From Candidatus Aenigmatarchaeota archaeon (GTDB lineage Archaea; Aenigmatarchaeota; Aenigmatarchaeia; CG10238-14; WAMV01), in the NCBI GenBank assembly GCA_015522145.1, contig WAMV01000012.1, positions 1 to 33,496 of the forward strand: a stretch of 33,496 bases of DNA, in the 5' to 3' direction. Below, in pieces: positions 2,976-26,560 of this stretch (the first letter of the stretch is position 1; the number at the start of each line of letters is the position of its first letter). The translations under genes were made by a program, and so were the position numbers. The notes under the pieces are model-generated. The model worked only from the letters and a program-made list of their open reading frames with translations, made no database searches and was not told the origin of the DNA.

Positions 2976-4001
2976 TTATTGAAACCAGCTTTGCAAGCTT
3001 TTCTGAGTGCCTTTTTTCTGAGCTTCTTTCACTTTTTCTAAAGCCTTTCTTATTCTTTCTTCTGAAAAATCTCTTTCTTCGACTAAAAACTTTATTATTT
3101 TGTCCTCATTGATTTCTCCCCACTCTATTTTTACGTTAGTTTCGATGGGTGGGTTTAAGAAGAAATCATATATCTGATGGGCATCAACATCAAAATCCCA
3201 AGACACAAATTTTAAAACTCTGTCTAGCGTCTTATGTTTTTTAACAAGCTCTAAAGCTTTTTTCACACCAATTCCTTTAACCCCATTAGGATTGTAATCT
3301 GTCCCAACTAAAATTCCTATAATTATTAACTGTTCCCTGTTTATACCCAGTCTGGACAAATTTTCGTTCAGGTCTATGATTTCTGGTTTTATTTCTACAT
3401 AAATTTCTTTTCTGGGTAGTTTCCTCTTACCTGTTATAGACAAATTCCTGACAAGTTTTGGCGAACCAAAAAGTAAGGAATCGTAGTCTTGGCTTGCACT
3501 ATAGTCAACATAACCTTCTTTAGCTAACCAAGCACACTGTGCCTCTCCTTCGCTTTTAGCCTGTACCCAAGGTATGCCCATATACTCCAATAATTTTTTT
3601 GATTCTTCAACCATTTCCTCACTAAGCCTTGCTGTGGCTTGAGCATATGTTATGGCTTCCTCACCTCTTTCCAAGGCTTCTCTTAATTTTTCTTCAGCTT
3701 TTCTCTTAGCTTCTTCTCTTCTCTCTATTTCTTCTTTCTTAAACTCTGGTGGTTCGCCATCAAAGCAATAGACCGGTTTGATTCCGTGTTCTAGCAAGTT
3801 TATTGTTCTGTAGAACAAACCAGAGAGATGAGAAGTTACTCTTCCTTTAGAATCTTTTAGCGGCTCCCCAGTAAACCTGTCTCTGATAATTGCAAGAAAC
3901 TGATAAAGAGTGTTAAAAGCGTCTATAGCAACTTTTTTTCCAGAAAGTTGGGTTAACTCAATCTCTTTTTTCTCAAAAAGACCTGATAAATTTACTCCCA
4001 T
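2976..4001 (-). CDS. fen: flap endonuclease FEN-1
   Basis: MGVNLSGLF...[13 protein letters not shown]...; XPG-N/XPG-I motifs ([33 protein letters not shown]); C-terminal [11 protein letters not shown]-like box. Confidence 0.92.
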
Positions 4002-6554: not shown

Positions 6555-7273
6555 GAGCCTTGGCAATAAGTATTGAAAAAGCGGTCATAGCAAGATTACA
6601 CATTAAAGGAAATAAATTCGAAATTTTGGTAGACCCAAAACTAGCTTGGGAATTTAAGCAGGGAAAGGATATTGACATTGACGAAATTCTGGCTTATCCA
6701 GCAATTTACAGAGATGTTAGGGCTGCAGAGGTTGCTAGTGAAGAGGAATTACAGAGTAATTTTGGCACAACTGATTATAGGGAAGTAGCTAAAAAAATTA
6801 TTAAAGAAGGTGAACTACAGCTAACTGTAGAGCAAAGAAGGGAAATGATAGAACAGAAAAAAAATCAAATAGCTTCAATAATAGCTAAACAAGCTATAAA
6901 TCCCCAAACAAATACACCACATCCTCCCAGTAGGATTATTAACGCAATGGAACAGTTGGGTATTAACATAGATCCGTTCATAGAGGCTGAGTTGCAAGTG
7001 GAAAGGATTTTACCAGAGCTGAAAAAGTTGTTGCCTCTTAAATTCCAAAAAGTGGTTATGGAAGTAAAGATACCACCAGCTTACGTTGGTAAGATATTCG
7101 CCTCTCCCTTGAAAAAGTATGCTACCATTAAAGAAGAATCCTGGGAAAGTGATGGCAGTCTGAAACTAAAATTAGAATTTTTTGCTGGAAGCCAGCAAGA
7201 AATAGAAAAAGTTATAGCTAATGCTACTCACGGCAATTTTGAGTCCAAAATACTGGAGAGGATTGATGTATGA
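6551..7273 (+). CDS. sdo1: SBDS/Sdo1 ribosome maturation protein
   Basis: GTG start overlapping the psmA stop (GTGA). The sequence VIARLHIKGNKFEILVDPKLAWEFKQGK matches the SBDS N-terminal (FYSH) domain. Conserved superoperon position. Confidence 0.85.
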   Translation: MRALAISIEKAVIARLHIKGNKFEILVDPKLAWEFKQGKDIDIDEILAYPAIYRDVRAAEVASEEELQSNFGTTDYREVAKKIIKEGELQLTVEQRREMIEQKKNQIASIIAKQAINPQTNTPHPPSRIINAMEQLGINIDPFIEAELQVERILPELKKLLPLKFQKVVMEVKIPPAYVGKIFASPLKKYATIKEESWESDGSLKLKLEFFAGSQQEIEKVIANATHGNFESKILERIDV

Positions 7274-7926
7274 TAAGGAAAATTGTGTTGCCTGGAGAAT
7301 ACCTAGAAGAGCAGAGAGGAAGAAAATTAGGTACGGGTGTGTATAAAGAAGGAACTAAAGTATTCTCAGCTGTCCTAGGCACACCAAAAATTAGCGACAC
7401 AGAAATTTCTGTAATACCGCTAGCAGGAAAATATATACCGAAAGTTAACAACATGGTTATAGGTGTTATAAAGGATGTAGAAATAACAGGATGGGTTGTT
7501 GATATTAATGCGCCTTACATGGCATACTTACCTTTAAGCGAAGGTGTTAAGGAATTTGTTGACATCAAGAAAGTTGATCTAAGCCAATTTTATGATATTG
7601 GTGATTGGATTTATTGTCAGATTTTCAAAGTACCCAGAAATAAAATAGTCCAGCTGAGCATGAAAGCTGAAAACGCTAGAAAGTTGGAAGGTGGAGTAAT
7701 TGTTAAAATAACACCTTATAAAATACCGAGGTTAATAGGTAAAGGTGGTAGCATGATTAAGATTATTAGCGAGAAAACAAAAACAACAATAATACCTGGT
7801 CAAAATGGTTTGGTTTGGGTTAAAGGTAAAGATGTGGAAAAAGCTATAAAGGCTATAGAGCTTATAGAAAAGGAATCCTATATTTATGGGCTGACAGAAA
7901 AAGTTACGAGGTTGTTGGAAAAATGA
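7270..7926 (+). CDS. rrp4: exosome complex RNA-binding protein Rrp4 (S1 + KH)
   Basis: VLPGEYL N-terminal domain, S1 domain, and KH motif IGKGGSMIKII. Confidence 0.88.
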   Translation: MIRKIVLPGEYLEEQRGRKLGTGVYKEGTKVFSAVLGTPKISDTEISVIPLAGKYIPKVNNMVIGVIKDVEITGWVVDINAPYMAYLPLSEGVKEFVDIKKVDLSQFYDIGDWIYCQIFKVPRNKIVQLSMKAENARKLEGGVIVKITPYKIPRLIGKGGSMIKIISEKTKTTIIPGQNGLVWVKGKDVEKAIKAIELIEKESYIYGLTEKVTRLLEK

Positions 7927-8627
7927 AGGGTAATGTTGAGTTAATAATTGACGGAAAAAGATTGGATGGAAGAAAGCCTTTGGAAATGAGAGAAGTAGAG
8001 ATGAAAGTAAACGTAGTTAGGAATGCTGATGGTTCCGCTTACGTCAGATTTGGAAAAACTATAGCTATAGCTGCGGTTTATGGCCCAACGATTTTATTAC
8101 CTAAGCATTTACAAGAAGACAAGCTTTTGGTTAAAGTAAGGTATAGCATGCTACCCTTTTCTGTGGATGAAAGAAAGTCTCCAGGTCATGATAGGAGAAG
8201 TATTGAATTGAGTAAAGTTATTAAAAATGCTTTAGCTCCAGCAATTATGCTTGATGAGTACCCTAGGGCTGTGCTTAAAGTTTACGTTGAAATAATTCAA
8301 GCAGATGGCTCTACTAGAGTCACAGGTACCAATGCAGCAAGTTTAGCTTTAGCTATGGCTGGCGTGCCAATGAAAGATTTGGTTACAGCATGCTCTGTCG
8401 GTAAAATAAATGATACTATAGTTTTGGATTTGAACGGTATAGAGGATAATAATTCACAAGCAGACATGGCTTTTGCTATGATGCCTTCCAAGAATAGAGT
8501 AACTTTATGGCAAATGGATGGTCAGCTCACTAAGGAAGAAATTAAAAAAATGATCAAAATAGCAAGCGATGCATGCAAAAAGCTTTATGATATGCAGAAA
8601 AAAGCAATAAGAGGTGCTTTCAAATGA
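7923..8627 (+). CDS. rrp41: exosome complex exonuclease Rrp41 (RNase PH fold)
   Basis: GKRLDGRKPLEMREVEMKV...ADGSAYVRFGKT...DGSTRVTGTNAASLAL are RNase PH motifs. Confidence 0.9.
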   Translation: MKGNVELIIDGKRLDGRKPLEMREVEMKVNVVRNADGSAYVRFGKTIAIAAVYGPTILLPKHLQEDKLLVKVRYSMLPFSVDERKSPGHDRRSIELSKVIKNALAPAIMLDEYPRAVLKVYVEIIQADGSTRVTGTNAASLALAMAGVPMKDLVTACSVGKINDTIVLDLNGIEDNNSQADMAFAMMPSKNRVTLWQMDGQLTKEEIKKMIKIASDACKKLYDMQKKAIRGAFK

Positions 8628-9382
8628 TGATAGAAGAATATGTTAGGGAAGTATTGAATAAAGGAAGAAGAATAGACGGAAGAAGATTTGATGAATACAG
8701 AAAAATCATTGTGGAAAAGGATATCATTGAGAAAGCAGAAGGTTCCGCGAGAGTAAAGCTTGGTAATACAGAAGTTATAGCTGGTGTTAAGCTTAATGTT
8801 TTGAAACCATTTCCTGATACGCCAGAAGAAGGTGTGCTCATAGTAAATGCAGAATTTTTGCCAATAGCTCATGAAGAGTATGAGCCTGGACCCCCTGGAG
8901 AAGATGAAATAGAACTTGCTAGAGTTGTAGATAGAGCAATAAGAGAAAGCAAAGCTATAAAGCTAGAAGAGCTTTGTATTGAACCTAGCGAAAAAGTTTG
9001 GGGTGTGTTTATAGATATAACCGTTATTAACGATGATGGAAATTTGATGGATGCTGCATGCTTGGCTGCGACCGCAGCATTGGAAGTTACTAAAATACCA
9101 AAATATGAAGAAGACAAAATAATTAGAGGAGAGTATCAGGGTAAATTACCTTTAAGGGCTAAACCTGTTATAGTTACCGTAGCTAAGTACGGAAGAAGAT
9201 TCTTAGTTGATTTGAAAAAGGAAGAAGAGGAAATTATTGATACCAAAGTAAGCATAGGTGTTTTTGATGGTAAAGTTTGCGCTATACAAAAGCAGGGTCA
9301 AGGTTATATATCCTTACGTGATATAGAAACTATATTGGAATTGGCATTAAGAAAAAGTCAAGAGCTTAAGAAGGTGATATGA
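8624..9382 (+). CDS. rrp42: exosome complex component Rrp42
   Basis: GRRIDGRRFDEYRKI...AEGSARVKLGNTEVIAGVK; RNase PH-like inactive partner, placed after rrp41. Confidence 0.9.
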   Translation: MMIEEYVREVLNKGRRIDGRRFDEYRKIIVEKDIIEKAEGSARVKLGNTEVIAGVKLNVLKPFPDTPEEGVLIVNAEFLPIAHEEYEPGPPGEDEIELARVVDRAIRESKAIKLEELCIEPSEKVWGVFIDITVINDDGNLMDAACLAATAALEVTKIPKYEEDKIIRGEYQGKLPLRAKPVIVTVAKYGRRFLVDLKKEEEEIIDTKVSIGVFDGKVCAIQKQGQGYISLRDIETILELALRKSQELKKVI

Positions 9383-9550
9383 ATGCCAATAAAACACATA
9401 ACCAAAAAAATAAAGCTAGCAGCAGTTCATAAAGTAAAGGCTGCTCCCAGATGGGTTGATTTAAAGAAATTTGGAATAAAAAGATCTAGAACCAGAAGAT
9501 TTTTTGTCAAGGGAATAAAAAGATGGAGAAGACAAAGAGTTAGGGTGTGA
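9383..9550 (+). CDS. rpl39e: ribosomal protein L39e
   Basis: A 55-codon ORF not in the track: MPIKHITKKIKLAAVHKVKAAPRWVDLKKFGIKRSRTRRFFVKGIKRWRRQRVRV. It is basic, has the K-L-A...P-x-W pattern and a WRR tail like eL39, and starts directly after the rrp42 stop. Confidence 0.7.
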   Translation: MPIKHITKKIKLAAVHKVKAAPRWVDLKKFGIKRSRTRRFFVKGIKRWRRQRVRV

Positions 9551-9554
9551 AAAG

Positions 9555-9562
9555 AAAAAAAA
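9555..9562 (-). terminator. oligo-T tract downstream of pilin-like gene A
   Basis: A run of 8 A on the plus strand (T8 on the minus strand) lies 17 nt after the stop at 9579. Archaeal terminators are oligo-T runs. Confidence 0.35.
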
Positions 9563-9578
9563 CAAGTAAGTTTTGCTT

Positions 9579-9998
9579 CTATGCTTTCCAACAAGCATCT
9601 CCTTGGCTGCAACTACCTGTTACTGCTACCTCACCCTGACATAACCCGTTAGCTATAACTTCTGTTTTGCCTGCTGCGCTCCAGCCGCTTGTAACCCTAG
9701 CTATATCACCTGCGGTGAGAGTTGTTTTGTCTGGGGTGTAGCTGGTCCCAGTGTTATCTAAAATAACCAAATTTGTGATTTGTTTGCTCGATGGGTTTCT
9801 AACTAAGATGGTTGTGTCTGTTACTCTAAAAACATCTAAATATACACCAGCACACTCTGTTTGAGAGGTTGTTGTATTCTCAACATTACCTGTTACTCCA
9901 CCGAAGAAGCCTGGGAGCCATGTTGATACAATTCCTGCAACTGCTACTGTGAATGCTATTAACAATACGGCAGAAATCATGGGGCTTATACCTTTCAT
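9579..9998 (-). CDS. archaeal type IV pilin-like protein (class III signal peptide), paralogue A
   Basis: MKG|ISPMISAVLLIAFTVAVAGIV is a short basic leader, then G, then a hydrophobic helix, typical of the archaeal Pilin_N/DUF1628 class. The C-terminal domain has 4 Cys. Confidence 0.8.
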   Translation of the reverse strand: MKGISPMISAVLLIAFTVAVAGIVSTWLPGFFGGVTGNVENTTTSQTECAGVYLDVFRVTDTTILVRNPSSKQITNLVILDNTGTSYTPDKTTLTAGDIARVTSGWSAAGKTEVIANGLCQGEVAVTGSCSQGDACWKA

Positions 9999-10030
9999 AA
10001 AAGTTTTTAAGGTTTTTGGGTATAAAAATA
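9888..10030 (-). repeat. direct repeat copy 1 (promoter + 5' coding module of pilin A)
   Basis: I see no mismatch to 10974..11116 over 143 nt. The inner 95 nt (9888..9982) are also identical to 10443..10537. Confidence 0.9.
10021..10030 (-). promoter_or_regulatory. TATA-like box for pilin A (probably a leaderless mRNA)
   Basis: Minus-strand TATTTTTATA ends 22 nt upstream of the ATG at 9998. There is no Shine-Dalgarno site between them. Confidence 0.4.
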
Positions 10031-10040
10031 AATACTTTTC

Positions 10041-10553
10041 TTAACCAACGACTTTTATAGGCTGGGGCTCACCAAATGATGGACCGCTCGAGGAAAATAC
10101 TGGGATTCTCCAACATTCTTCACCCAGAGAACATTCATCCCAAACAGAAATTCCATCTGAACACAATCCATAAAGGATTATATTTTTTATCTTCCCGAAT
10201 AATATGTCTTGAATCGGAATTGGTGTCAATATAGCTTTCATTTCTCCCGGAAGCAATGTTTCATTAAGAAAATATTCTTCGCCATTATCAGTAAGCAAAT
10301 TAACATTCTTTATTTCGACTAGCGAGGGATTATAAACGATTAAAGTTGTATTGTAGGTGTTATTTGAAACGCTTATAGAAACTTTTAAGATTTCTATATA
10401 AGCAGATAAACATCTTACGTCTGTAGCTTTTGCTCCAACATTACCTGTTACTCCACCGAAGAAGCCTGGGAGCCATGTTGATACAATTCCTGCAACTGCT
10501 ACTGTGAATGCTATTAACAATACGGCAGAAATCATGGAAATAAGAGCTTTCAT
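10041..10553 (-). CDS. archaeal type IV pilin-like protein, paralogue B
   Basis: MKA|LISMISAVLLIAFTVAVAGIV. Residues 7-37 are identical to A and C. It keeps the 4-Cys pattern and has an extra C-terminal tail, IPVFSSSGPSFGEPQPIKVVG. Confidence 0.8.
   Translation of the reverse strand: MKALISMISAVLLIAFTVAVAGIVSTWLPGFFGGVTGNVGAKATDVRCLSAYIEILKVSISVSNNTYNTTLIVYNPSLVEIKNVNLLTDNGEEYFLNETLLPGEMKAILTPIPIQDILFGKIKNIILYGLCSDGISVWDECSLGEECWRIPVFSSSGPSFGEPQPIKVVG
10443..10537 (-). repeat. direct repeat copy 2 (5' coding module of pilin B)
   Basis: The 95 nt are identical to 9888..9982 and 10974..11068. They encode MISAVLLIAFTVAVAGIVSTWLPGFFGGVTG. Confidence 0.9.
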
Positions 10554-10643
10554 ATAATTAATAATTAATTGAACTCCTGATATGATTTATTTATCTTTTA
10601 AGAAAAGTGGTTAAAAAAGAAAGAAAAGGAGAAAGCTGAAATC

Positions 10644-11084
10644 TTACAACTGCCAGCAAGGATCGTCTTGGGCACAACTTCCTGTTACAGATACGCTGTT
10701 CAAACAAAGACCACTAGCTAGTATTTCTTGTGTTCCAGAAATTTGTGTTGTGTTTTTATCGCTTACTACACTTATTAATTGACCTTGAGCTAGCGTTCCT
10801 ACAGAAGCCAAGGATACGCCAGTATCAGTCAAAACGTTTATGGATGTAATATCTTGGCTGGATGGATTTCTTAGAAATAAAACAACGCTGCTGTTACTAA
10901 GACTTGTTACTCTGAATATATCAATGTAAACACCTGCACATTTTGTTTGATTTTCTGTTCCTGCCTCTACTGAACCTGTTACTCCACCGAAGAAGCCTGG
11001 GAGCCATGTTGATACAATTCCTGCAACTGCTACTGTGAATGCTATTAACAATACGGCAGAAATCATGGGGCTTATACCTTTCAT
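10644..11084 (-). CDS. archaeal type IV pilin-like protein, paralogue C
   Basis: The first 37 residues are identical to A (MKGISPMISAVLL...GGVTG). It has the 4-Cys pattern CAGVY...GLC...GSC...CW. Confidence 0.8.
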   Translation of the reverse strand: MKGISPMISAVLLIAFTVAVAGIVSTWLPGFFGGVTGSVEAGTENQTKCAGVYIDIFRVTSLSNSSVVLFLRNPSSQDITSINVLTDTGVSLASVGTLAQGQLISVVSDKNTTQISGTQEILASGLCLNSVSVTGSCAQDDPCWQL

Positions 11085-11116
11085 AAAAGTTTTTAAGGTT
11101 TTTGGGTATAAAAATA
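10974..11116 (-). repeat. direct repeat copy 3 (promoter + 5' coding module of pilin C)
   Basis: The 143 nt are identical to 9888..10030, including the start codon and the upstream TATTTTTATACCC element. Confidence 0.9.
11107..11116 (-). promoter_or_regulatory. TATA-like box for pilin C, possibly shared bidirectionally with rpl31e
   Basis: The same TATTTTTATA lies 22 nt upstream of ATG 11084. On the plus strand the AT-rich tataaaaatataaa lies about 25-35 nt upstream of the rpl31e ATG at 11143. Confidence 0.4.
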
Positions 11117-11142
11117 TAAACTTTTGGACATTTTCTTAATTT

Positions 11143-11376
11143 ATGGCAGAAGAAAAAATAGTAACATTCAACTTACGCAAAATTGTGGTTAAAAAATCAA
11201 GATTCAAGAGAGCCAACTATGCAATAAGATATTTGAAGAACTATTTAGCTAAGCATTTTGCTCCAAACGTTAAAATAAGCCAAAGATTGGCTAACCAGAT
11301 ATTCAAGAATCCAATGAAAAAAGTAAGAGTCAAAATTAAAAAAGAAGAGAATAGAGTGGAAGTGGATCTTCAATGA
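11143..11376 (+). CDS. rpl31e: ribosomal protein L31e
   Basis: 77 aa: IVTFNLRKIVVKKSRFKRANYAIRYLKNYLAKHF is L31e-like. It is followed by eif6, as in the conserved L39e-L31e-aIF6 cluster. Confidence 0.8.
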   Translation: MAEEKIVTFNLRKIVVKKSRFKRANYAIRYLKNYLAKHFAPNVKISQRLANQIFKNPMKKVRVKIKKEENRVEVDLQ

Positions 11377-12047
11377 TAGATTATGCTAGTTTTTTGGGTG
11401 ATGTTAACATAGGTTATTATAGTGTAGTTAATAATGAACTTGGAATAGTGGGAGAAGATTTAGAAGCCAAAAACATTAACAAAATAAAAAAAGTTTTGAA
11501 AATCGAAAAAATTTACAAGCTAACTATAGCTCAAACAAACTTAATAGGCTTATTTTGTGTTATAAATGCTAACGGTATTATAGTTCCTGAAATTGTTGAA
11601 GAAGAGGAGCTTAGCAAATTGGATAAAATAGCCAATAAACATGGTATGAATTTAGGGATAATTAAAACTAAACATACAGCCTTAGGAAATTTGATAGTTT
11701 GTAACGATAAAGGCGCTCTAGTTAGCAAATTACTAAAAAGAAGCCAAATAAACAAAATATCAAAAATTTTAGATGTCAAATCTTACACTTCTACTATAGC
11801 CTCCTTGCCTATAGTTGGTTCGTGTGCAGTAGCTAATAACAAAGGTGTTGTGTTGCACAGAGATGTTAAAGAAAAGGAAGCTAAAAAAGCAGAGAAGGTT
11901 TTGCAAGTAGAAGCAGACGTAGCAAGCGTTAATTTTGGTAGCCCTTATGTTAAATCCGGTATAATATGCAATGATTACGGTGCTTTAGTAGGAGAAAAAA
12001 CTACAGGGCCAGAATTAGCAAGAATCTCAGAAATTCTTCAGGTCTAA
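11373..12047 (+). CDS. eif6: translation initiation factor 6 (aIF6)
   Basis: 224 aa with pentein-like internal repeats (NLIGLFCVINANGIIVP, ALGNLIVCNDKGALVS, VGSCAVANNKGVVLH, VKSGIICNDYGALVG). Confidence 0.88.
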   Translation: MIDYASFLGDVNIGYYSVVNNELGIVGEDLEAKNINKIKKVLKIEKIYKLTIAQTNLIGLFCVINANGIIVPEIVEEEELSKLDKIANKHGMNLGIIKTKHTALGNLIVCNDKGALVSKLLKRSQINKISKILDVKSYTSTIASLPIVGSCAVANNKGVVLHRDVKEKEAKKAEKVLQVEADVASVNFGSPYVKSGIICNDYGALVGEKTTGPELARISEILQV

Positions 12048-21479: not shown

Positions 21480-22418
21480 TCAGCAGAAATTTTGCGTTAC
21501 ATATACTGTACCATTATTGGTTATGTAAACACCAATACCTTCCTTTCTATAATATTCTGCCAACAAATTTTTTCTATGCCCTTCACTTCCCAACCAGCCT
21601 TGAACTGTAGCATTAGCAACATCACCTACGGTTTGAAATACGTAAGAGGTTATCTCGCCTGTTTTAGGATTGTAATAATAAGAAGTATAAATATAAGTCT
21701 GTAGGAGATTCTCACCTCCTGTATAAATCAAATTCCCAACAACAATCCTACAAGAATAGTTAAACTTCTTATACCTGTCTTGCAAAGTTTCACCTTCTGG
21801 GCTTTCATGGGCAAAGTAGTTTTTTAAAGCCATATCTTTACTATGATATCTTGCTATTTCAGCAAGCTTTTCGTCCCATTCTAATGTTTGCAATCCGTAT
21901 TCTTTTCTAACTTTGTTAACAAGTTCGTGTATTTTTAATTCTAGAACATATTGTTGATTCCTGAATTCTAGAACTTTTTCTTGTAAAATTTCGTTAGTTG
22001 TTTTATATCTAGCCAAAATTTCTGGTGGATAAAGTCTTGGTTTCAATTCTTTGAAAGAAATAAAACCAAGTTGAGATTCTAGCAAATATCTAGCTTTTAC
22101 ATCTAAGTTTTCTATTCCTAAAATTGTGCCAGCGTAGCTAAGAAAGTTTTGGGAATAGTCTGAAAAAGTAAGAATTGCTAAAGAAAATAGAAAAGCTACA
22201 ATAAGATGTTTGTAAGGAAGTATGTCTTTTGTCTTCCAGTAAATTTCCTCTATAATCAGTAAAATAATCGTTAATATTAGAGTTCTAGAAATTATGGTTG
22301 CTAATTTTAATGTTTCTTCAAAAATAAAATGAATTGTAAGAACTATTATAAGAAGGTAGCTAAACAACTTTACAAAATTCTGAATCAAAAAAAGCTCTCT
22401 CTTCTTCTTTTTCAGCAT
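21480..22418 (-). CDS. membrane-anchored CAP/SCP (PR-1, YkwD-like) domain protein
   Basis: Several TM segments at the N-terminus. The C-terminal IARYHSKDMALKNYFAHESPEG...GENLL...VQGWLGSEGHRKNLL...GIGV...VTQNF is the CAP-domain signature. The start is trimmed to ATG 22418, because the track start at 22478 runs into the tRNA 3' exon. Confidence 0.8.
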   Translation of the reverse strand: MLKKKKRELFLIQNFVKLFSYLLIIVLTIHFIFEETLKLATIISRTLILTIILLIIEEIYWKTKDILPYKHLIVAFLFSLAILTFSDYSQNFLSYAGTILGIENLDVKARYLLESQLGFISFKELKPRLYPPEILARYKTTNEILQEKVLEFRNQQYVLELKIHELVNKVRKEYGLQTLEWDEKLAEIARYHSKDMALKNYFAHESPEGETLQDRYKKFNYSCRIVVGNLIYTGGENLLQTYIYTSYYYNPKTGEITSYVFQTVGDVANATVQGWLGSEGHRKNLLAEYYRKEGIGVYITNNGTVYVTQNFC

Positions 22419-22481
22419 AAAATAATCTGTGTTTTTATCTAAATTTGAAATAATGCCCCCGGTGGGATTCGAACCCACGAC

Positions 22482-23108
22482 CTACGGCTTAGGTTCGACA
22501 GAGAGGAGGGCTCTAATTAAAGGTCTATATTTAGTGTTTACTGATTTATTAAAATAATTTTTATCCAAAAGCTTAAACGGTTTAATTTTATATATGAATT
22601 TTAATGATTCTTGACCATACACTATGACTTCATAGTAATCCCTTCTATTTTTTCTTTTTTCGTTTACGCAAACTAGTTTATGATGAATATTCATTGTCTT
22701 CATGGCTTGTGAGACTAAATCTATTATGGATTTAGATGAGTTAGTAATCTTTATTCTTCTACCTCTTCTAGTACTTCTAAAATCTATAGAACCTTCTGCA
22801 TCAAAGATGCCTCGTAAAAACACACGTGCATATTTTTCCTCTCTTATTAACCTAGCTAGTTCTTTTCTTATTTTTTTGATTTTTTTTACTAATTTCTCGT
22901 CCCTTATACATATGATAATTTCTGGTTTCCAGTTATGCTTTCTCTTTTTTCTTTTATAAATTCGGGTTTTAGATGTGAGTGTGTTTATTAATTTTTTGTA
23001 TTTTGTAGCCAGTGTTCTGTTGGTTGTTGAAATAGCTATAGATTTGCCTAACTCATACCCATCTCCTATGTAATAGCCAGTTATGTTTATTAACAGTTCT
23101 TTTTTCAT
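22482..23108 (-). CDS. LAGLIDADG homing endonuclease (two-motif, I-DmoI-like size)
   Basis: 208 aa. Motif 1 is ITGYYIGDGY and motif 2 is FLRGIFDAEGSI, about 95 residues apart. A GGAGGG Shine-Dalgarno site lies 2 nt before the AUG. The last 3 sense codons and the UAG stop lie in tRNA exon 2. Confidence 0.85.
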   Translation of the reverse strand: MKKELLINITGYYIGDGYELGKSIAISTTNRTLATKYKKLINTLTSKTRIYKRKKRKHNWKPEIIICIRDEKLVKKIKKIRKELARLIREEKYARVFLRGIFDAEGSIDFRSTRRGRRIKITNSSKSIIDLVSQAMKTMNIHHKLVCVNEKRKNRRDYYEVIVYGQESLKFIYKIKPFKLLDKNYFNKSVNTKYRPLIRALLSVEPKP

Positions 23109-24772: not shown

Positions 24773-26560
24773 TTACATTATAACTTTAATTTCCTTACCC
24801 GTCATCAAAGCCTTGACTAATGTTTTACCTATTTCACTAGCCTTACTAATTCTAACAACACCTTTCCTGCTTACAGTACCACTAAACACAAACTTTCCTT
24901 CAACATAAAAATTAACTGTTTTATTAGCAAGTTTTGGATCAAAAGAAAACTCTAAGCTATTTCCTACTTCCCTTACCTCATACTTAACTTCCTTGCCTAA
25001 AGTAGCATATTTTGGCTCTACATCAATACCGATACCCAGCTTTTTCTCTATGTTGCTTATGGTTTTACCACCCCTCCCTATTAATTTAGGTATTGCCTTC
25101 TCACTTACCCTAACTATTGCTCTATTACCTTTAAACTCTATCTCAGCTTTTTTGTCGAACTTAGAAATTACTTCATATATCTTTTGTTTAGCTAACTCAA
25201 TAATAGCATTGGTCTCTTCTTTAGCCACAGGAACAACAATATTCTCTTCACCATAAGAATAAATTTCATACTCTAGCTTTCCGGTTTCAAAATCCCTTAT
25301 TTCTACAACAGGTCTTGCTAAATCTTCAGACTTCATGCCAGTAGGTATTTTAACAACAAGTTGTAAAGTGTATATTTTCTTGATCTCACCGTTCTTAACA
25401 AAAATTACTGTGTCAACAATATGAGGTATCATTCCAAGCTCAATCCTGCCTATAAATCTTTGTATTGCGCTTATAGCATCACTTGAATGCACAACTCCTA
25501 TCATGCCTACACCAGCAAGCCTTAGGTCAGCAAATATTTGAAATTCTCTAGTCTTCCTAACTTCGTCAAAAATTGTGTAATCTGGTCTTACCAAAAGTAA
25601 AATATCAGCTGTTTTCTCAAAATCTCCCTCTAATGGAGCATATTGTGTTATTTCTTCGCTAACCTGCAAATCTCTAGGACTTTCCATAGTTTTAACAATC
25701 TTTCCCATTTTAAGATAGAATTCTGCTATGCTTGCTGCTAGCGTACTTTTTCCAGAGCCTGGCGGTCCAGCTATAATTATGCCTTCTGCCCTTTCCTTAA
25801 GCCTTTCTATTAATTTTTTAGAAGGTTTATAATCCTCTAAACTAAGCTTGACTAATGGCCTAACTATAGTTACTTCCAATCCATCGCTAAAAGGTGGTCT
25901 AGCTATCGATATCCTGTAATTTTTGAACTGTATAACAGTGGCTCCCCTTCTCTCTATTTCTATGCTTGCTTCTTCACTAACCCTAGAAGCTTCTATAATT
26001 TCCATTATGATTTTCTCTATATCTTCTTTAGTCAGTTTTTCATCACTAAGCTTAACAAGCTTAAATTCTCCAGGCTTGCCTTTTTTAGCTATTGGCTCAA
26101 CTCCTTCTTTCAAATGCACAGATAAAGTGCTTTCATCAAAAAACCTTTCAAATTCAAGACCTTCTGTCTTTATCTCTGGCTCTAAATAAATGCTTTTAAC
26201 TCCTTCTGCTTCAGCAACTAAATGCTGAACATAATCAGCAGTAATCAAATAAGCATCTTCATTTTTAGCAACATCCCTAATTATGGCATCTATCCTTCCT
26301 GCTTTAGCTAGTTTTATTTCTTCTAGTGTAGGCCTTTGACCTGTGAATCTGAATTTAATTCCTTTTTCCTCGCAGTATACTCTAAGCCTTTTTAACTGCT
26401 CTAACCCTACAAATCCAGGCTCTCTGCCTTTGCTAGCCTGAGCCTGCAACTCATCTAGCACAGCTATAGGTATGATTATCTCTTTCACATTTCCTTGCTC
26501 TTCTATCCACTCTGGGAGCTTGCCATCTATTATTACGCTCGTGTCAGGTACTAGCTTCAT
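24773..26560 (-). CDS. PIN domain - PilT-like ATPase - KH domain protein (COG1855 class)
   Basis: N-terminal PIN (LVPDTSVIIDG...VLDELQ), Walker A GPPGSGKST, C-terminal KH (LIGRGGKTISNIEKKLG). Confidence 0.8.
   Translation of the reverse strand: MKLVPDTSVIIDGKLPEWIEEQGNVKEIIIPIAVLDELQAQASKGREPGFVGLEQLKRLRVYCEEKGIKFRFTGQRPTLEEIKLAKAGRIDAIIRDVAKNEDAYLITADYVQHLVAEAEGVKSIYLEPEIKTEGLEFERFFDESTLSVHLKEGVEPIAKKGKPGEFKLVKLSDEKLTKEDIEKIIMEIIEASRVSEEASIEIERRGATVIQFKNYRISIARPPFSDGLEVTIVRPLVKLSLEDYKPSKKLIERLKERAEGIIIAGPPGSGKSTLAASIAEFYLKMGKIVKTMESPRDLQVSEEITQYAPLEGDFEKTADILLLVRPDYTIFDEVRKTREFQIFADLRLAGVGMIGVVHSSDAISAIQRFIGRIELGMIPHIVDTVIFVKNGEIKKIYTLQLVVKIPTGMKSEDLARPVVEIRDFETGKLEYEIYSYGEENIVVPVAKEETNAIIELAKQKIYEVISKFDKKAEIEFKGNRAIVRVSEKAIPKLIGRGGKTISNIEKKLGIGIDVEPKYATLGKEVKYEVREVGNSLEFSFDPKLANKTVNFYVEGKFVFSGTVSRKGVVRISKASEIGKTLVKALMTGKEIKVIM

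Follow-up and report, generated by a model that had tools for sequence, protein, structure and literature searches.

Three tandem type IV pilin-like genes of an Aenigmatarchaeota archaeon with a nucleotide-identical 5′ module, probably maintained by gene conversion

The contig WAMV01000012.1 of a Candidatus Aenigmatarchaeota archaeon (assembly GCA_015522145.1) comprises 33,496 nucleotides (nt). This whole stretch of DNA was analyzed and is referred to as the window. Its nearest relatives likewise place the organism among the Aenigmatarchaeota, a DPANN group. It contains three genes for type IV pilin-like proteins, A, B and C, which according to the list of open reading frames (ORFs) are arranged head to tail on the minus strand (Table 1). 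By string comparison, all three share a block of 95 nt without any mismatch, and residues 7–37 are the same in the three proteins. The longest exact run between B and C is limited to these 95 nt. Between A and B it amounts to 102 nt (9881–9982 and 10436–10537), and between A and C to 143 nt (9888–10030 and 10974–11116), composed of 111 coding nt and 32 nt upstream of the ATG. In gene B the promoter and codons 3–6, belonging to the signal-peptide cleavage region (KALIS in comparison to KGISP), are located outside the identical tract. A 63-nt piece of the block has three exact matches in the window, compared to none expected from 100 dinucleotide-preserving shuffles. The array carries direct repeats with lengths of 95–143 nt at distances of 531–1086 nt.

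At about codon 37–40 the similarity of A, B and C breaks down, and with it the identical tract ends. For the pair A/C, identity in windows of 10 codons is 100, 100, 100 and 86%, followed by values of 40–76%. The part of each gene beyond codon 37 is termed the head in the following, and synonymous and nonsynonymous divergence (dS and dN) are Nei–Gojobori estimates. The heads of A and C are identical to 55% in nucleotides and to 47% in amino acids (aa) with a dS of about 1.5, whereas dS is 0 for codons 1–37 of the same pair. For A/B and B/C, nucleotide identity of the heads decreases to 41–45% and amino acid identity to 27–28%; dS is about 3.1 for B/C and saturated, thus not computable, for A/B. 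Values of dN between the heads range from 0.5 to 0.76. Additionally, the head of A is nearer to heads from other species (P0004, P0007 and P0006) than to the head of C. A first reading of the locus, made from the letters alone and called the sequence-only reading here, had described the mismatch-free 95-nt block, an A/C identity of 143 nt through the start codon into a TATA-like box, and strong divergence of nucleotides and protein past codon 37. The first two statements were confirmed by the string comparison, the third by the identity along the gene length and by dS.

Table 1. Positions of the pilin-like genes, their identical segments and further features of the window, followed by loci of other Aenigmatarchaeota genomes (L numbers; positions given per locus).
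Feature	Positions	Strand	Description
Gene A	9579..9998	(-)	139 aa, type IV pilin-like, MKG/ISPMISAVLL...; based on ORF, TIGR02537 and AlphaFold2
Gene A, head			four conserved cysteines and one N-glycosylation sequon
Gene B	10041..10553	(-)	170 aa, divergent pilin-like paralogue; based on ORF, TIGR02537 just below cutoff, and AlphaFold2; altered cleavage region MKA/LISMIS, larger head, C-terminal coil tail of ~22 aa
Gene C	10644..11084	(-)	146 aa, type IV pilin-like; adjoins the L31e gene and is divergent from it
95-nt block, copy 1	9888..9982	(-)	codons 6–37 of A, hydrophobic alpha1-N helix; exact string identity
95-nt block, copy 2	10443..10537	(-)	in B; another 7 nt toward the 3′ end of the gene, up to 10436, are identical with A
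95-nt block, copy 3	10974..11068	(-)	in C; exact string identity
A/C identity extension in A	9983..10030	(-)	codons 1–5, start codon and 32 nt upstream
A/C identity extension in C	11069..11116	(-)	codons 1–5, start codon and 32 nt upstream
TATA-like box of A	10021–10028		TTTTTATA
TATA-like box of C	11107–11114		TTTTTATA
55-aa basic ORF	9383..9550	(+)	flanks the array on the Rrp42 side; possibly ribosomal protein L39e, unconfirmed
Ribosomal protein L31e	11143..11376	(+)	other flank of the array; Pfam PF01198, 25.7 bits
FEN1/XPG flap-endonuclease gene	2976–4001	(-)	contains the SNP-rich tract 3081–3921
CAP-domain protein	21480–22478	(-)	332 aa
LAGLIDADG endonuclease-like ORF	22482–23108	(-)	208 aa, free-standing
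T2SSE-like P-loop protein	24773–26560	(-)	595 aa
Window	9383–11376		3 pilin genes; exact 5′ run 143 nt
L004	7687–9177		2 pilin genes at syntenic site; exact 5′ run 226 nt
L006 (GCA_041643275.1)	6664–8589		3 pilin genes at syntenic site; exact 5′ run 138 nt
L007 (GCA_053529915.1)	6575–8478		3 pilin genes at syntenic site; exact 5′ run 127 nt
L008	1377–2457		2 pilin genes at syntenic site; exact 5′ run 169 nt
L009	7695–8671		1 pilin gene at syntenic site
L036			exact 5′ run 180 nt
L062			exact 5′ run 113 nt
L064	12–1125		two 152-aa paralogues; exact 5′ run 127 nt
L065	1843–2959		two 152-aa paralogues; exact 5′ run 245 nt
L066			exact 5′ run 192 nt

The profile TIGR02537 (arch_flag_Nterm, NCBIfam), which describes the archaellin/type IV pilin N-terminal domain, matches A and C with 29.6 and 29.9 bits at a cutoff of 20. 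As is typical for archaeal type IV pilins, a class III signal-peptide motif, K2-G3/I4-S5 with the slash at the cleavage site, is followed by a hydrophobic helix. Searching 5.8 billion proteins with a profile revealed 172 relatives; the named ones are designated ‘flagellin-like’ or ‘type IV pilin N-terminal domain-containing protein’ and are assigned to Candidatus Aenigmatarchaeota. An alignment of 77 homologues shows no variation at K2, L12, L13 and four cysteines and hardly any at I4, S5 and W137. The cysteines correspond to C49, C120, C130 and C136 of A, with W137 directly after C136, giving the head motif C...GxC...C-x5-CW, and their invariance suggests two disulfides in the head. With this alignment, AlphaFold2 predicted for A a helix of residues 6–48 and a six-stranded beta head at a predicted local distance difference test score (pLDDT) of 90.4. 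The prediction for B (pLDDT 86.6) shows a helix of residues 3–50 and a beta head, thus the same plan as A with a larger head and a coil tail. An extended N-terminal helix carrying a beta-sandwich head is the ‘lollipop’ fold of pilins. The best Foldseek matches for A in the PDB are 8fk7, 6w8x and 6nav (probability 1.00, E values of 1e-4 to 5e-4), followed by archaellins, and the family profile matches 8fk7 with E = 1e-7. Identity to these three structures is only 18–20%, with TM-scores of 0.34–0.50. On the strength of the TIGR02537 scores, the conserved motif, the AlphaFold2 fold and the Foldseek and profile matches, A, B and C can be classed as type IV pilin-like subunits of archaea whose leader, M-K-G, is unusually short.

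More specific assignments were considered and rejected. For the UpsA/UpsB pilins (NCBIfam NF046073), scores of 30.9–34.5 bits stand against an equivalog cutoff of 130, and A and C match only with their N-terminal 47 residues. For the archaellins, no archaellin family of Pfam or NCBIfam is matched, and they appear only among the more distant structural neighbors. No arl/fla genes are present in the window or in the related loci. The label ‘flagellin-like’ is an auto-annotation of the Joint Genome Institute (JGI). One further protein of the window gives a Pfam match to T2SSE; its P-loop ATPase core, which resembles T2SSE, lies between an N-terminal PIN domain and a KH domain. Because of this architecture, it was rejected as a candidate pilus-assembly ATPase.

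The 143 nt shared by A and C include a TATA-like box, TTTTTATA, whose center is located about 26 nt upstream of the ATG in both genes. It would be the promoter element of A and C, and its distance from the ATG suggests that their messenger RNAs (mRNAs) are leaderless or nearly so. T-rich stretches are found 3′ of the stop codons of A and C. The box of C lies inside the 58-nt spacer between C and the divergently oriented L31e gene, and one quasi-symmetric TATA element may serve both genes. The starts of A and C are called differently in the databases. ENA records place them at the internal Met7 (133 and 140 aa), NCBI at Met1 (139 and 146 aa). Starting at Met7 would remove the KG/ISP cleavage motif (window 9980–9998 and 11066–11084). 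The family-wide conservation of K2-G3-I4-S5 favors Met1 as the start.

The origin of the identity was followed in two related arrays, L006 and L007, which contain three genes each that pair by position as orthologues. The heads of positional orthologues are 68–76% identical in nucleotides, compared to 39–50% for paralogues, and the duplications are thus older than the species split. Codons 1–37 of genes 2 and 3 are nevertheless identical within each genome at 111/111 nt, whereas orthologues of the two genomes agree at 93/111 nt, with a dS of about 1.0 and a dN of 0.013. A dN this low at a dS of about 1 shows that the helix protein is under strong purifying selection, with synonymous sites drifting freely between the genomes. 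The 5′ module is therefore alike by genome and the heads are alike by position, as expected for concerted evolution, and the identity within genomes despite the drift between them is the hallmark of such evolution by gene conversion. A second replicate is provided by L064 and L065, in which fixed differences at nt 33, 39 and 48 are common to both copies within each genome. The paralogues of these two loci exhibit mosaic identity inside their heads too, and the stretch YNTTGQNHSTGFAS, for example, occurs in the first copy of one genome and in the second copy of the other. At L064/L065, conversion is thus not confined to the 5′ module.

For the lineage of the window itself, the comparison with the close relative L094 (GCA_054030335.1, ~93% identical) covers copy C alone. 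The positional orthologue of C is a pilin both in L094 and in L092, the nearest other species. L094 carries four substitutions within the 95-nt block of C, at window positions 10989, 11001, 11016 and 11052, that leave the protein block unchanged. In L092 the helix has the same protein sequence and the block is only 78% identical in nucleotides.

Similar identities are shared by other members of the phylum. A contig scan with the 77-sequence alignment gave 79 loci from species-representative genomes, and 31/79 contain at least two pilin-like ORFs. Ten genomes, namely that of the window, L004, L006 and L007 from other look-ups, and loci of the 79-locus scan, show exact 5′ runs of 113–245 nt between neighboring pilin genes (Table 1). 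The runs begin 5–57 nt upstream of the ATG and, in the five genomes examined in detail, end between codons 38 and 57. In most of these pairs the heads are only 40–60% identical, with L064 and L065 as exceptions at 83–86%. Conversion has happened independently in many Aenigmatarchaeota lineages.

We conclude that the 5′ identity is probably best explained by gene conversion among old tandem pilin-like paralogues. According to this proposal, the heads of the three genes would have diverged long ago and been kept distinct. In each subunit, a very short signal peptide of class III would precede the hydrophobic N-terminal helix that forms the filament core, and a disulfide-containing beta-sandwich head would follow. 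The 5′ segment, with the cleavage site and the core helix and in A and C also the start codon and the TATA box, would have been overwritten repeatedly between the tandem copies by non-reciprocal homologous recombination. As an outcome it would stay identical in nucleotides within a genome and drift at synonymous sites between genomes. In functional terms, the likely sense would be that one prepilin peptidase has to process all three proteins and that the same helix has to pack into one filament or fit one assembly machine. The different heads would then provide different surface properties, the subunits being either major and minor pilins or major pilins that replace one another.

Several observations weigh against this interpretation or limit its reach. 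With 19.3 bits, B is marginally below the TIGR02537 cutoff of 20, and the Pfam family PF07790 (Pilin_N) scores only 16–18 bits, which is below its gathering cutoff of 25.2. Among the ORFs of the 33-kb window there is no prepilin peptidase (peptidase A24), no PilB-type ATPase and no PilC platform, so that filament formation stays an inference, as does a role in episymbiotic cell–cell attachment. At a strain divergence of 0.1–0.9%, no difference in 95 nt would be expected even without any conversion since the strains split, so that the latest conversion in the genome of the window may be older than this split. The pilin-like nature of the proteins and the gene conversion had both been put forward in the sequence-only reading. 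The former is supported by TIGR02537 for A and C, by the ‘lollipop’ fold and by archaeal type IV pili as best structural matches, the latter by the orthologous arrays of L006/L007 and by L064/L065.

The same reading had also proposed that the locus generates adhesin or pilus variation, with different heads shuffled onto one constant stem. In such a programmed locus the block would be the recombination substrate by which heads are swapped, deleted or duplicated, with a surface switching similar to phase or antigenic variation. The direct repeats would allow deletions, duplications and chimeras, and the copy number at the syntenic site varies from one to three among species. This range is in line with occasional events of unequal crossing-over in the course of evolution rather than with a programmed switch. 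Four near-identical assemblies, L001 (99.89%), L002 (GCA_027051465.1, 99.12%), L003 (99.59%) and L096 (99.72%), represent several samples and pipelines. Wherever they overlap the window, they are colinear with it and show no indel; L001–L003 span the full array and L096 reaches only into gene A. Their 5–91 single-nucleotide polymorphisms (SNPs) relative to the window are all located outside 9281–11432, the array being invariant at the level of consensus assemblies, which hide minority variants. As far as these data go, the fixed arrangement that the sequence-only reading had named as counter-evidence is what is observed, with no recombinant junctions and no array SNP in the four assemblies. 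An exact 35-nt piece of the block gave no matches in JGI metagenome contigs that could reveal alternative 3′ cassettes. The heads are orthologous by position between L006 and L007, and the homogenized portion is the constant region, not the variable one. Each copy is a full gene with its own ATG and a complete ORF, and A and C have TATA-like boxes and subsequent T-rich stretches. Together with the SNP-free, unrearranged array, this led us to reject antigenic variation of the pilE/pilS type. In the screened ORFs, resemblance to recombinases or nucleases was limited to the LAGLIDADG-like ORF at a distance of about 11 kb, FEN1 and PIN-domain ORFs, and none of them adjoins the array. In GCA_054030335.1, contigs L095 and L094 end at positions corresponding to 9350 of the window (inside Rrp42) and 10639 (5 nt beyond the stop codon of C), leaving the 55-aa ORF, A and B unassembled (window 9351–10638), with the breaks located off the repeat edges and no A- or B-like protein of this assembly in the protein collection. 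Contig ends at the edges of the A–B region could mean heterogeneity of the population, and in case of a switch the unassembled interval would be its footprint; we consider this improbable. A promoter-plus-helix block used as a switch, by which subpopulations display different pilus surfaces, for example for different hosts, is equally doubtful, and a programmed variation locus as a whole is unlikely. The proposed shuffling was thus not borne out by the colinear assemblies, the positional orthology of the heads and the completeness of the genes.

Explanations without any conversion fare worse. A recent duplication followed by very fast, positively selected divergence of the heads, with a 5′ module too young to have changed, would be in line with the often fast evolution of surface proteins and with the high dN of the heads. 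Positive selection cannot, however, generate synonymous divergence, and the saturated synonymous sites of the heads (dS of at least 1.5) compared to dS 0 in the module contradict this explanation. The greater similarity of the head of A to P0004, P0007 and P0006 than to that of C, and the orthology in L006/L007 that places the duplications before speciation, point in the same direction, which makes a young array highly unlikely. To a similarly small degree we consider selection on the nucleotides themselves, with the block acting as an RNA or DNA element such as a regulatory 5′ mRNA structure or a small-RNA target common to the three transcripts. The identity does span synonymous sites and, for A and C, the untranslated upstream region. 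The B copy, however, lacks the upstream part, no Rfam family is matched in the window, and a conserved structure or motif with compensatory changes across species was not seen. Synonymous differences accumulate in relatives, with a dS of about 1 between the L006 and L007 orthologues, and the nucleotide changes in L094 and L092 at a conserved protein exclude nucleotide-level selection on the block as the cause of the identity. The least probable explanation, which we regard as very remote, is an assembly or consensus artefact in which the assembler collapsed or copied a repeat. Short-read assemblies do break at this repeat: L096 ends at 9910, 23 nt inside the block, and L092 breaks off 20 nt past the first of its pilin genes. 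L001, L002 and L003 nevertheless give the same order of three genes with unique heads between the repeats, and L096 agrees within its reach. The repeat of at most 143 nt can be spanned by read pairs, and the pattern recurs in nine other genomes from unrelated projects. Such an artefact, which the earlier reading had considered fatal to its claims, is thus unlikely in view of the agreement of the overlapping near-identical assemblies.

The array is embedded in a neighborhood of exosome, proteasome and ribosomal-protein genes. The basic 55-aa ORF on the Rrp42 side has no Pfam or NCBIfam match, and its identity as L39e was not confirmed; a gene of 54–55 aa is called at the equivalent site in L004, L007, L008 and L009, and not in L006. 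On the opposite side, the L31e gene is followed by eIF6 (eIF-6 match, 7e-59). The site beside L31e and next to the 55-aa ORF and Rrp42, with one to three pilin genes, is conserved across divergent Aenigmatarchaeota (Table 1). The called genes of L008 do not include L31e, and here S27 and the 54-aa ORF flank the array. The whole window (1–33496) contains no tRNA gene and no Rfam family at the gathering threshold. Next to the free-standing LAGLIDADG endonuclease-like ORF, a CAP-domain protein (cysteine-rich secretory protein domain) is encoded.

Of the 91 SNPs between L002 and the window, 61 fall within an 840-nt tract of the FEN1/XPG flap-endonuclease gene. They are mostly spaced in multiples of three and correspond to about 7% divergence, compared to about 0.3% elsewhere. 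The tract looks like an import by homologous recombination from a more distant strain. An interpretation of the SNP-free pilin array as the sign of a sweep was rejected as weak, since the SNPs are strongly clustered and long SNP-free stretches occur elsewhere as well.

Mechanistically, the locus is a case of fairly ordinary concerted evolution and reveals no new process. It offers a clean natural example of how exposed domains can diversify next to a type IV filament assembly module that stays uniform. That conversion reaches over the cleavage site, the helix and even the promoter speaks for one peptidase and one assembly machine, possibly also one filament, common to all paralogues. The small four-cysteine pilins are likely the major pilins and the main surface filament of the Aenigmatarchaeota, a poorly known DPANN group. 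From a practical point of view, such blocks break short-read assemblies and mislead gene callers, as seen from the two starts for A and C, and they would confound pilin trees calculated from whole genes.

In prokaryotes, tandem paralogues are well known to undergo segmental gene conversion and to evolve in concert. Similar to such cases, the pilin-like genes combine identity within genomes and divergence between genomes in one segment with retained orthology of the flanks and variable tract ends. In contrast, the tract is confined here to the membrane and assembly helix of a pilin and its promoter, and it recurs in at least ten Aenigmatarchaeota lineages. In the pilE/pilS system of Neisseria, it is the variable head that is converted, with promoterless, 5′-truncated silent cassettes as donors for a single expression locus. 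Both systems have in common type IV pilins, non-reciprocal recombination between copies and a constant N-terminal stem with a variable head. A, B and C, however, are each a full gene, and homogenization affects their constant 5′ part and leaves the heads stable. With the flagellar-like pilus of Pyrobaculum calidifontis (8fk7) and the pili of S. solfataricus and S. islandicus (Saccharolobus; 6w8x, 6nav), the predicted structures share the long N-terminal helix and the beta-sandwich head, whereas the four-cysteine head motif is specific to the pilin family of the window.

A further counterpart is found in Haloferax volcanii, whose paralogous pilins PilA1–PilA6 possess an almost completely conserved N-terminal H-domain and divergent heads (Esquivel et al. 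2013; reviewed in PMC4371748). Each of them can form pili, and replacement of the H-domain abolishes assembly (PMC4371748). A literature search revealed no paper that ascribes the Haloferax case to gene conversion. Nor did it yield any that deals specifically with such conversion, or with concerted evolution, in archaeal pilins, their 5′ modules or archaellins, or with this Aenigmatarchaeota family. In contrast to the Haloferax pilins, the identity in the window is observed at the nucleotide level, for A and C including start codon and promoter. A, B and C are furthermore arranged in tandem at a syntenic site beside ribosomal protein genes, score below the Pfam Pilin_N threshold and carry heads with four invariant cysteines. 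Judged by their sequences, they appear to share with PilA1–PilA6 the near-identical hydrophobic domain combined with divergent heads, the class III cleavage site in front of the H-domain, and a location away from the pilB/pilC machinery, so that the Haloferax pilins may be regarded as the closest functional analogue.

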